Shown here: in pieces, positions 1,098 to 1,281 of the stretch
Position numbering within the stretch: position 1 is the stretch's first letter
Layout: each line of letters starts with the position of its first letter
Assembly (NCBI RefSeq): GCF_003334385.1
Contig: NZ_QOWN01000114.1
Reading direction: 5' to 3' (one strand)
DNA length: 1,409 nucleotides
Source: Escherichia coli
GTDB taxonomy: Bacteria; Pseudomonadota; Gammaproteobacteria; Enterobacterales; Enterobacteriaceae
Made by a program: the position numbers and the translations under genes
The notes under the pieces: generated by a model
Told to the model about the DNA's origin: nothing
Seen by the model: only the letters and a program-made list of their open reading frames with translations
Databases searched by the model: none

Positions 1098-1175
1098 CAG
1101 GTGGATAGTGAGGTTTCATCCATCTGTTCGTGATTGCCGGAAAACGACAAAAGCCGGACATCGTACATTATCCAC

Positions 1176-1199
1176 GGGTGCCTTTGACTGACGGCACCC
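1176..1199 (+). other. GC-rich inverted repeat / hairpin in the J-stf spacer (possible weak terminator or protein-binding palindrome)
   Basis: Seen in sequence: GGGTGCC (1176-1182) and GGCACCC (1193-1199) form a perfect 7-bp stem around a 10-nt loop TTTGACTGAC, followed by TTTAA, which is only a short and imperfect T-tract. Function is inferred only. Confidence 0.3.
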
Positions 1200-1234
1200 T
1201 TTAACACCAGCCAGTCACAATTTATACCCCTGAT

Positions 1235-1268
1235 CGCAGACCGGGTAACCGGTACTGCGGTTTTTTTT
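1235..1268 (+). terminator. Rho-independent (intrinsic) terminator: GC-rich hairpin plus T8 tract, between the J stop and the stf ribosome-binding site
   Basis: Seen in sequence: CGCAGACCGG (1235-1244) pairs with CCGGT(A)CTGCG (1249-1259), giving a 10-bp stem with one bulged A (1254) and a GTAA tetraloop (1245-1248), followed by G and then eight T (1261-1268). It is oriented for + strand transcripts only; there is no A-tract on the 5' side. Confidence 0.6.
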
Positions 1269-1270
1269 AT

Positions 1271-1276
1271 GGGAGA
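1271..1276 (+). promoter_or_regulatory. Shine-Dalgarno sequence (GGGAGA) for the stf-like gene
   Basis: Seen in sequence: purine-rich GGGAGA, 5 nt upstream of ATG 1282, matching the AGGAGG core in 5 of 6 positions. Confidence 0.6.
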
Positions 1277-1281
1277 AATCT

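Follow-up and report, generated by a model that had tools for sequence, protein, structure and literature searches.

The J–stf spacer of an Escherichia coli prophage is very probably the remnant of a hok/sok cassette

The hokA–E loci of Escherichia coli K-12 are, as Pedersen and Gerdes reportedly described in 1999, inactivated by IS elements, point mutations and rearrangements. In plasmid R1, the hok mRNA is kept inert by a long-range helix, in which its 5′ end (tac) pairs with a 3′ element (fbi) (PMC9841398), and hokW–sokW of Sp5 works as a toxin–antitoxin system (PMC8621323). The enrichment of hok/sok loci in prophages has been documented before (bioRxiv 10.1101/2025.08.07.668861). Here we report an analysis of a 1,409-nucleotide (nt) stretch of E. 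coli DNA (contig NZ_QOWN01000114.1 of assembly GCF_003334385.1; the whole stretch is called the window), which spans the junction between the phage tail gene J and a side tail fibre (stf-like) gene. A comparison with related prophages, in which the same junction contains an intact hok/sok locus, leads us to conclude that the spacer between J and stf is very probably the remnant of a hok/sok cassette that has lost ~331 bp internally, and is neither an empty site nor the site of a lost lom gene.

Organization of the J–stf junction

The window is organized as follows (positions are those of the window).

1..1097, + strand: 3′ part of gene J (tail tip/host specificity protein), an open reading frame (ORF) with the stop codon TGA at 1095–1097
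1098–1281: J–stf spacer, 184 bp
1098..1128, + strand: 3′ flank specific to the window's J allele, with a possible 8-bp hairpin (1098–1126, centroid fold) that has no T-run
1129..1175, + strand: remnant of the hok promoter region, from alignment with the sequences upstream of the hok mRNA in IBS28, 1720a-02, LZSFT34 and M18
1176..1199, + strand: hairpin 1, a tac-like 5′ end (1176 to ~1195) fused to an fbi-like 3′ element (~1190 to 1201)
1200..1231, + strand: linker, the weakly conserved 3′ tail of the hok transcript from fbi to the terminator
1232..1268, + strand: hairpin 2 and T8, resembling an intrinsic terminator, of the hok-type cassette (stem 1232–1262, loop GTAA, T-run 1261–1268)
1271..1276, + strand: Shine–Dalgarno-like GGGAGA, read from the sequence, 5 nt before the stf ATG
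1282..1409, + strand: 5′ end of the side tail fibre (stf-like) gene, from the RefSeq coding sequence (CDS) start (ATG at 1282; 128 bases in the window)

The first-pass annotation had described a J–stf gap of 184 bp, and this measurement holds. J ends at 1097 and the stf-like gene starts at 1282, and in the 99.9% identical prophage of E. coli 2018-166 (NZ_CP075632.1), the RefSeq genes for gpJ and a 'prophage tail fiber N-terminal domain' protein have these very boundaries, with zero annotated features in the gap. On the stf side, window 1249–1364 is 72% identical to lambda 19618–19732, a segment that covers the 5′ end of orf-401/stf, and the stf start of LZSFT34 is identical to that of the window at 128 of 128 positions. 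The tail operon of the NZ_CP075632.1 prophage also contains a full-length porin gene annotated as ompC (190583–191746; positions 1834–2997 of locus L001), flanked by a 'phage tail protein' gene and the minor tail protein L gene, at what appears to be a second accessory-gene slot in the tail region. Furthermore, several related prophages carry a YadA-like adhesin gene (with a YadA C-terminal domain) downstream of the tail fibre and DUF4376 genes (L001 12238–13563; L009 7966–9135; L005 5878 onward), which is likely to be cargo.

The ORFs that touch the spacer encode only 24–64 amino acids; none matches an NCBIfam family, and their PHROG matches are at chance level (E at least 0.02), in agreement with the earlier statement that the spacer has no plausible ORF. 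A Hok/Gef toxin ORF (~46–52 residues, Pfam PF01848) is absent from the window. No Rfam family reaches its threshold in the window, where only chance hits with E above 3 were obtained, and the Rfam sok model (RF01794) has no match there even at E up to 10.

Two hairpins, the second followed by T8, had been noticed from the sequence, and both were recovered as predicted structures. The DNA folds more stably than chance would explain, with z = −2.7 over the full spacer (equalled by 1 of 200 shuffles) and z = −4.4 over 1176–1268 (0 of 200). Hairpin 1 is formed by 7-nt arms of perfect complementarity, GGGTGCC (1176–1182) and GGCACCC (1193–1199), which enclose a 10-nt loop, and has just TTT on its 3′ side. 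Hairpin 2 has a 13-pair stem with one bulge (1232–1262; core 1235–1260) and the loop GTAA and is followed by T8 (1261–1268); by the sequence criterion of a stem–loop and then a T-run, it qualifies as an intrinsic (Rho-independent) terminator. The possible 8-bp hairpin directly after the J stop codon (1098–1126), which the first-pass annotation had not listed, competes with a 10-nt inverted repeat (1101–1110/1166–1175) that brackets the old promoter, and neither has a T-run. We judged this inverted repeat to be at chance level, as ~1 such pair is expected in 271 nt by our estimate.

Intact hok/sok loci at the same junction

In E. coli IBS28 (L005 2605–3086) and phage 1720a-02, the J–stf spacer is 482 bp long and contains an intact gene for a 46-residue Hok/Gef protein. 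The protein encoded at the relatives' junction matches Pfam PF01848 (E 8e-10) and the NCBIfam HokA/Hok models (E 2e-9), and the ORF occupies positions 199–339 of the IBS28 spacer. In the DNA upstream of this gene in IBS28 (L005 2656–2814), the Rfam sok model scores 62.5 bits, above its gathering score of 59, and position 1 of the model corresponds to the GGGUGCC of the intact relative. In the predicted fold of the IBS28 mRNA model (L005 2656–3072), 5′ GGUGCCUUUGGCUGAU is paired with 3′ GUCAGCCGGAUGGCACC (z −7.7), an arrangement that matches the tac/fbi helix of plasmid R1. The intact locus was found with at least 80% query coverage in 119 genomes.

The promoter of these loci has a common geometry, TTGCC(G/C)–17 bp–TA(C/A)A(G/T)T–6 bp–GGGTGCC, in IBS28, 1720a-02, LZSFT34, M18 and 933W. 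In EDL933/933W (L008 3204–4311), a gene for a 46-residue Hok/Gef protein lies directly after lom, and its promoter has a −35 element that coincides in part with the T-run ending the lom terminator. This lom-adjacent hok gene was considered as a possible counterpart of hokW of Sp5, and the published hokW primer sequence is absent from its 8.4-kb locus.

A probable deletion between direct repeats

The window aligns with the intact locus in two separate parts. Window 1129–1196 aligns with IBS28 spacer 12–71, which comprises the promoter region plus the initial ~20 nt of the hok transcript (GGGTGCCTTTGGCTGATGGC), and window 1191–1281 aligns with IBS28 spacer 397–482 (GATGGCACCGTTTTAAC, followed by the terminator and the ribosome-binding site). 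These pairwise, gap-tolerant alignments replaced a MAFFT alignment of the window and four relatives, which misplaced the 5′ half of the window. The similarity to intact hok loci reaches z 15.9 for 1129–1195 and z 11.3 on the 1196–1268 side, with 0 of 2,000 shuffles as good, and the left part is also similar to the hok paralogue of 933W (z 10.3). The blastn match between phage 1720a-02 and the spacer is likewise divided into two pieces, 469 bp apart.

Between the two aligned parts, 331 bp are missing from the window. In IBS28, the missing segment has copies of GATGGC on both sides (spacer 66–71 and 397–402), whereas the window retains a single copy of the repeat, GACGGC (1190–1195), and the deletion junction lies inside it. 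The exact breakpoints are read from a diverged relative, as the window flanks are 75–77% identical to the intact alleles found. The deleted segment comprises the entire Hok ORF and the whole Rfam sok-model region except for the first ~19 nt of the hok mRNA; sok-model positions 1 to ~19 are all that the window keeps of the model. The window lacks a sok match because the sok-model region beyond these first ~19 nt is deleted.

We propose the following history. In an ancestor of the prophage, J and stf would have been separated by a complete hok/sok locus, with a weak hok promoter, an mRNA closed by the tac/fbi helix, the gene for the 46-residue Hok protein, an antisense sok region and a terminator of its own. 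A single deletion of ~331 bp between the 6-bp direct repeats GATGGC, one located just past the 5′ end of the mRNA and the other within the fbi element, would have removed the toxin gene together with the whole region that corresponds to the relatives' Rfam sok model, and would have brought the initial ~20 nt of the mRNA directly up to its final ~75 nt. Hairpin 1 would then be built from the outermost base pairs of the former tac/fbi helix, its arms separated by 10 nt where ~340 nt once lay between them, and hairpin 2 with T8 would be the terminator of the cassette, placed just upstream of the stf ribosome-binding site. Prediction and homology together indicate that the outer seven pairs of the tac/fbi pairing are kept in the window as hairpin 1. 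Its arms are the outermost pairs of this helix, so hairpin 1 preserves a trace of the former RNA structure and is not a terminator.

Distribution of the scar

We searched 5,426 complete E. coli genomes and 50,697 phage records with the spacer, using sensitive blastn, and obtained three classes of matches. The whole 184 bp is present at 97.8–100% identity in 29 genomes and five PhiR12 phages; the 3′ half only (window 1190–1280) is present at ~78% identity in ~35 genomes; and the terminator and ribosome-binding site only (window 1235–1281) are present at ~90% identity in a few genomes. A search of metagenome contigs with the left flank TACATTATCCACGGGTGCC returned 39 contigs, 38 of which have the identical scar junction and one of which is unrelated, and the same left flank has 0 matches in the GTDB species representatives. 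The scar lineage occurs at more than one chromosomal site and in five PhiR12 genome records (listed hosts E. coli C and K-12 MG1655); a literature search on the PhiR12 phages found nothing relevant.

Window 1–578 is ~78% identical to J genes found in many Stx phages and in over 2,600 E. coli genomes, and the ~500 bases that encode the C-terminal part of J (579–1097) were seen only in scar-bearing prophages, which places a mosaic joint inside J near 580–610. The adjoining 1098–1128 has no blastn match outside the scar-bearing genomes among the complete E. coli genomes and phage records. In PhiR12_5 (L002 3567–7096), J is annotated as two CDSs (3567–6491 and 6569–7096), owing to either a frameshift or stop codon or an annotation artefact. 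A degenerate tac pattern, for which we estimate ~0.5 matches to be expected in 298 Gb, had a single match in the species-representative genomes, in Donghicola tyrosinivorans (L053 4414–4434), which we took as chance.

The E. coli genomes, phages and metagenomes yielded no intact allele that shares the left flank of the window, and all 38 contigs are scarred, which points to a single deletion event that was fixed in one phage lineage; the direct parent allele would not be among those found. The same 184-bp spacer thus does recur in close relatives, a case that the first-pass annotation had considered for an ancestral arrangement, but it does so only in near-identical prophages, and the distant relatives show the arrangement to be derived.

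A different deletion has affected the hok gene at this slot in M18 and LZSFT34, in which 103 bp are lost between CCGGATAGC and CCGGATGGC and hok is truncated to an annotated ORF of 21 residues (L004 2678–3047 in LZSFT34 and L006 2670–3046 in M18). LZSFT34 has an extra 10-bp deletion. The right end of the 103-bp deletion lies in the same fbi repeat (CCGGATGGC) as that of the window's deletion. The fbi repeat has therefore served as a breakpoint at least twice, as the right-hand end of two independent deletions.

Promoter remnant and present state of the locus

The promoter remnant in the window consists of a −35-like TTGCCG (1134–1139) and a −10-like TACATT (1164–1169), which are 24 bp apart, reflecting a 7-bp insertion relative to the 17-bp spacing of the family. 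The hok promoter is probably disabled, because a −35/−10 spacing of 24 bp instead of 17 bp would cripple it. An alternative pair of hexamers, ACGACA–16 bp–CATTAT, can be read in the window and is weak. In a consensus promoter scan of the window, neither TTGCCG/TACATT nor ACGACA/CATTAT reaches the threshold. A short RNA may nevertheless be transcribed from ACGACA–16 bp–CATTAT.

Such transcription is the basis of the alternative that survives best, in which the altered hok promoter drives a ~93-nt RNA (~1176–1268) that begins with a hairpin and ends in a terminator. The prophage would have co-opted this RNA either as a small RNA or to set stf expression in cis. The folding of 1176–1268 into two clean hairpins, at the z of −4.4 given above, agrees with this alternative, as does the placement of the −10-like TACATT/CATTAT 6 nt upstream of the old mRNA start, where the 7-bp insertion creates the ACGACA–16 bp–CATTAT arrangement. 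However, the family spacing TTGCC(G/C)–17 bp–TAnAnT is lost, no promoter passes the scan and there is no Rfam match. In addition, the window has lost the sok-model region of the relatives, which covers the leader of the hok mRNA and therefore the site that Sok would be expected to target. Across the 38 metagenome contigs, the scar shows almost no variation, as a functional RNA might, but the flanking genes are equally invariant, so recent common descent explains this invariance. Similarly, although the terminator is more conserved than the linker, the linker, which would form part of the RNA, is weakly conserved among the hok-type junctions. We consider it improbable that the spacer encodes a co-opted RNA of this kind, and about equally improbable that the collapsed locus is still alive in the sense that the rearranged promoter yields a stable ~93-nt RNA, which the prophage would use as a small RNA of toxin-mRNA origin or to tune stf expression in the lysogen.

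Under the preferred reading, a hok/sok remnant, the parts still in use are probably only the terminator and the stf ribosome-binding site (GGGAGA, 1271–1276), and the rest is probably inert. Lacking a toxin ORF, the sok-model region and the mok/hok leader, the locus cannot work as a toxin–antitoxin system, and we infer that the relic has ceased to be one. The deleted region includes that of the mok reading frame, which in hok loci overlaps hok and couples its translation. In the lambda late operon, a terminator halts unmodified RNA polymerase, and Q-modified polymerase reads through it. By analogy with lambda, the terminator in the window would keep unmodified polymerase out of stf in the lysogen, and Q-modified polymerase would pass.

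Boundaries of the accessory-gene slot

As one of two possibilities, the first-pass annotation had considered that the spacer is the scar of a lom-type moron that was deleted while its terminator was retained. This slot does contain lom in lambda and in E. coli prophages in which the stf start is 78–99% identical to that of the window, and lom-type junctions also have a hairpin and a T-run directly before the stf ribosome-binding site. When we searched with window 1235–1409, we found junctions in which the homology starts only at 1249–1255, and four of the four such junctions examined have an Ail/Lom gene between J and stf. One of these four, the junction of CP55_Sichuan, shares 98.7% identity with the window downstream of and including 1255, and the block ATGGGAGAAATCTATG, with the Shine–Dalgarno-like GGGAGA, is identical in the lom-type junction L010.

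Upstream of this shared end, the similarity to lom-type junctions vanishes. Window 1098–1195 has no similarity to J–lom intergenic DNA (z 0.7), window 1196–1254 has none to the lom–stf intergenic DNA of lambda or of a relative with a 98.7% identical stf start (z 0.9), and the linker has none to lom–stf intergenic DNA either. The sole stretch in common is 1255–1281 (CTGCGG, T8 and the ribosome-binding site; z 13.8), so that the alignment to the lom flanks suggested earlier fails everywhere else. A direct comparison with the J–lom–stf region of lambda gives homology only from the 3′ arm of the terminator into stf. At the terminator site, lambda and the lom-type junctions have a different hairpin stem, which is followed by the same T-run and ribosome-binding site. 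By contrast, the terminator stem of the window (CGCAGACCGG...CCGGTACTGCG) matches that of the hok-type junctions, unlike the lom-type stems: in IBS28, 1720a-02, LZSFT34 and M18, 31–32 of 34 positions are identical to the window (91–94%). The linker is identical at 18–22 of 36–37 positions (50–60%) in the hok-type relatives. Moreover, when every phage record, among them that of lambda, was searched by blastn, the spacer matched the PhiR12 phages and 1720a-02 only. A lom scar is thus very improbable. What stands of the earlier proposal is that a cassette was deleted and its terminator kept; the cargo was hok/sok, not lom.

Given the lack of similarity at 1098–1254 and the sharing from 1255 onward, the slot is bounded at ~1129 on the left and ~1255 on the right, where the T-run starts. 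Each cargo family brings its own terminator stem, and the terminator of the window is part of the hok cassette and not of lom. The junction had been described as a variable slot for accessory genes, and the relatives bear this out, with four states seen: lom, intact hok, truncated hok and the 184-bp scar. As expected of a moron, the content varies between the same flanking genes in related phages, and the terminator-like hairpin with T8, identified by its sequence, is specific to the hok-type cargo and lies at its 3′ end.

The last alternative, an ancestrally empty 184-bp junction into which hok/sok was inserted in the relatives, deserves scarcely any weight: although the short form is the sole one linked to the window's J allele in every collection searched, both ends of the hok transcription unit are present, the site holds hok-internal pieces (promoter region, mRNA 5′ end, fbi remnant, hok-type 3′ tail and terminator), the 5′ pieces also occur in the 933W hok paralogue in a different context, whereas an insertion would leave none of them in an unoccupied site, and the junction lies within a direct repeat that borders the missing segment on either side, a hallmark of deletion.

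Discussion

Our analysis corrects the annotation-level account of this junction, in which a moron scar with a retained terminator was right in kind and wrong in cargo. It shows that lambdoid prophages fill the J–stf slot by turns with cargo from at least two families, lom and hok/sok, that are not related to each other, and it provides a clean natural example of hok/sok loss, in which the toxin gene and the sok-model region are gone in one deletion. The locus is a new example of the hok decay that is already known, itself an ordinary case of prophage gene decay, and it leaves the knowledge of these systems unchanged.

A comparison with known systems places the window as follows. The lambda lom locus occupies the same J–stf slot, likewise has a hairpin and a T-run directly upstream of the stf ribosome-binding site, and varies in content among relatives; the window differs in having no similarity to lom or its flanks outside 1255–1281, and its lost cargo belongs to a different family. 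The intact hok/sok relatives combine a Hok/Gef ORF, an above-threshold sok match, a predicted tac/fbi-like helix and a 3′ hairpin. The window keeps the two ends of this arrangement, but it has neither a toxin ORF nor a sok-model match and its promoter spacing is 24 bp rather than 17 bp, and it is thus a remnant and not a working member of the family. The Hok/Gef paralogue of 933W-like Stx phages is ~76% identical to the IBS28 locus over the stretch that runs from promoter to fbi, and it shares the promoter geometry and the GGGTGCC mRNA start; it differs in that it follows lom, belongs to a short-tailed phage and lacks a hok-type terminator downstream of fbi. As in the chromosomal hok loci of K-12, hok function has been lost in a chromosome or prophage while remnants of the RNA elements remain recognizable; unlike those loci, the window has one internal deletion between 6-bp repeats, by which the toxin gene and the sok-model region are gone and tac is fused to fbi.
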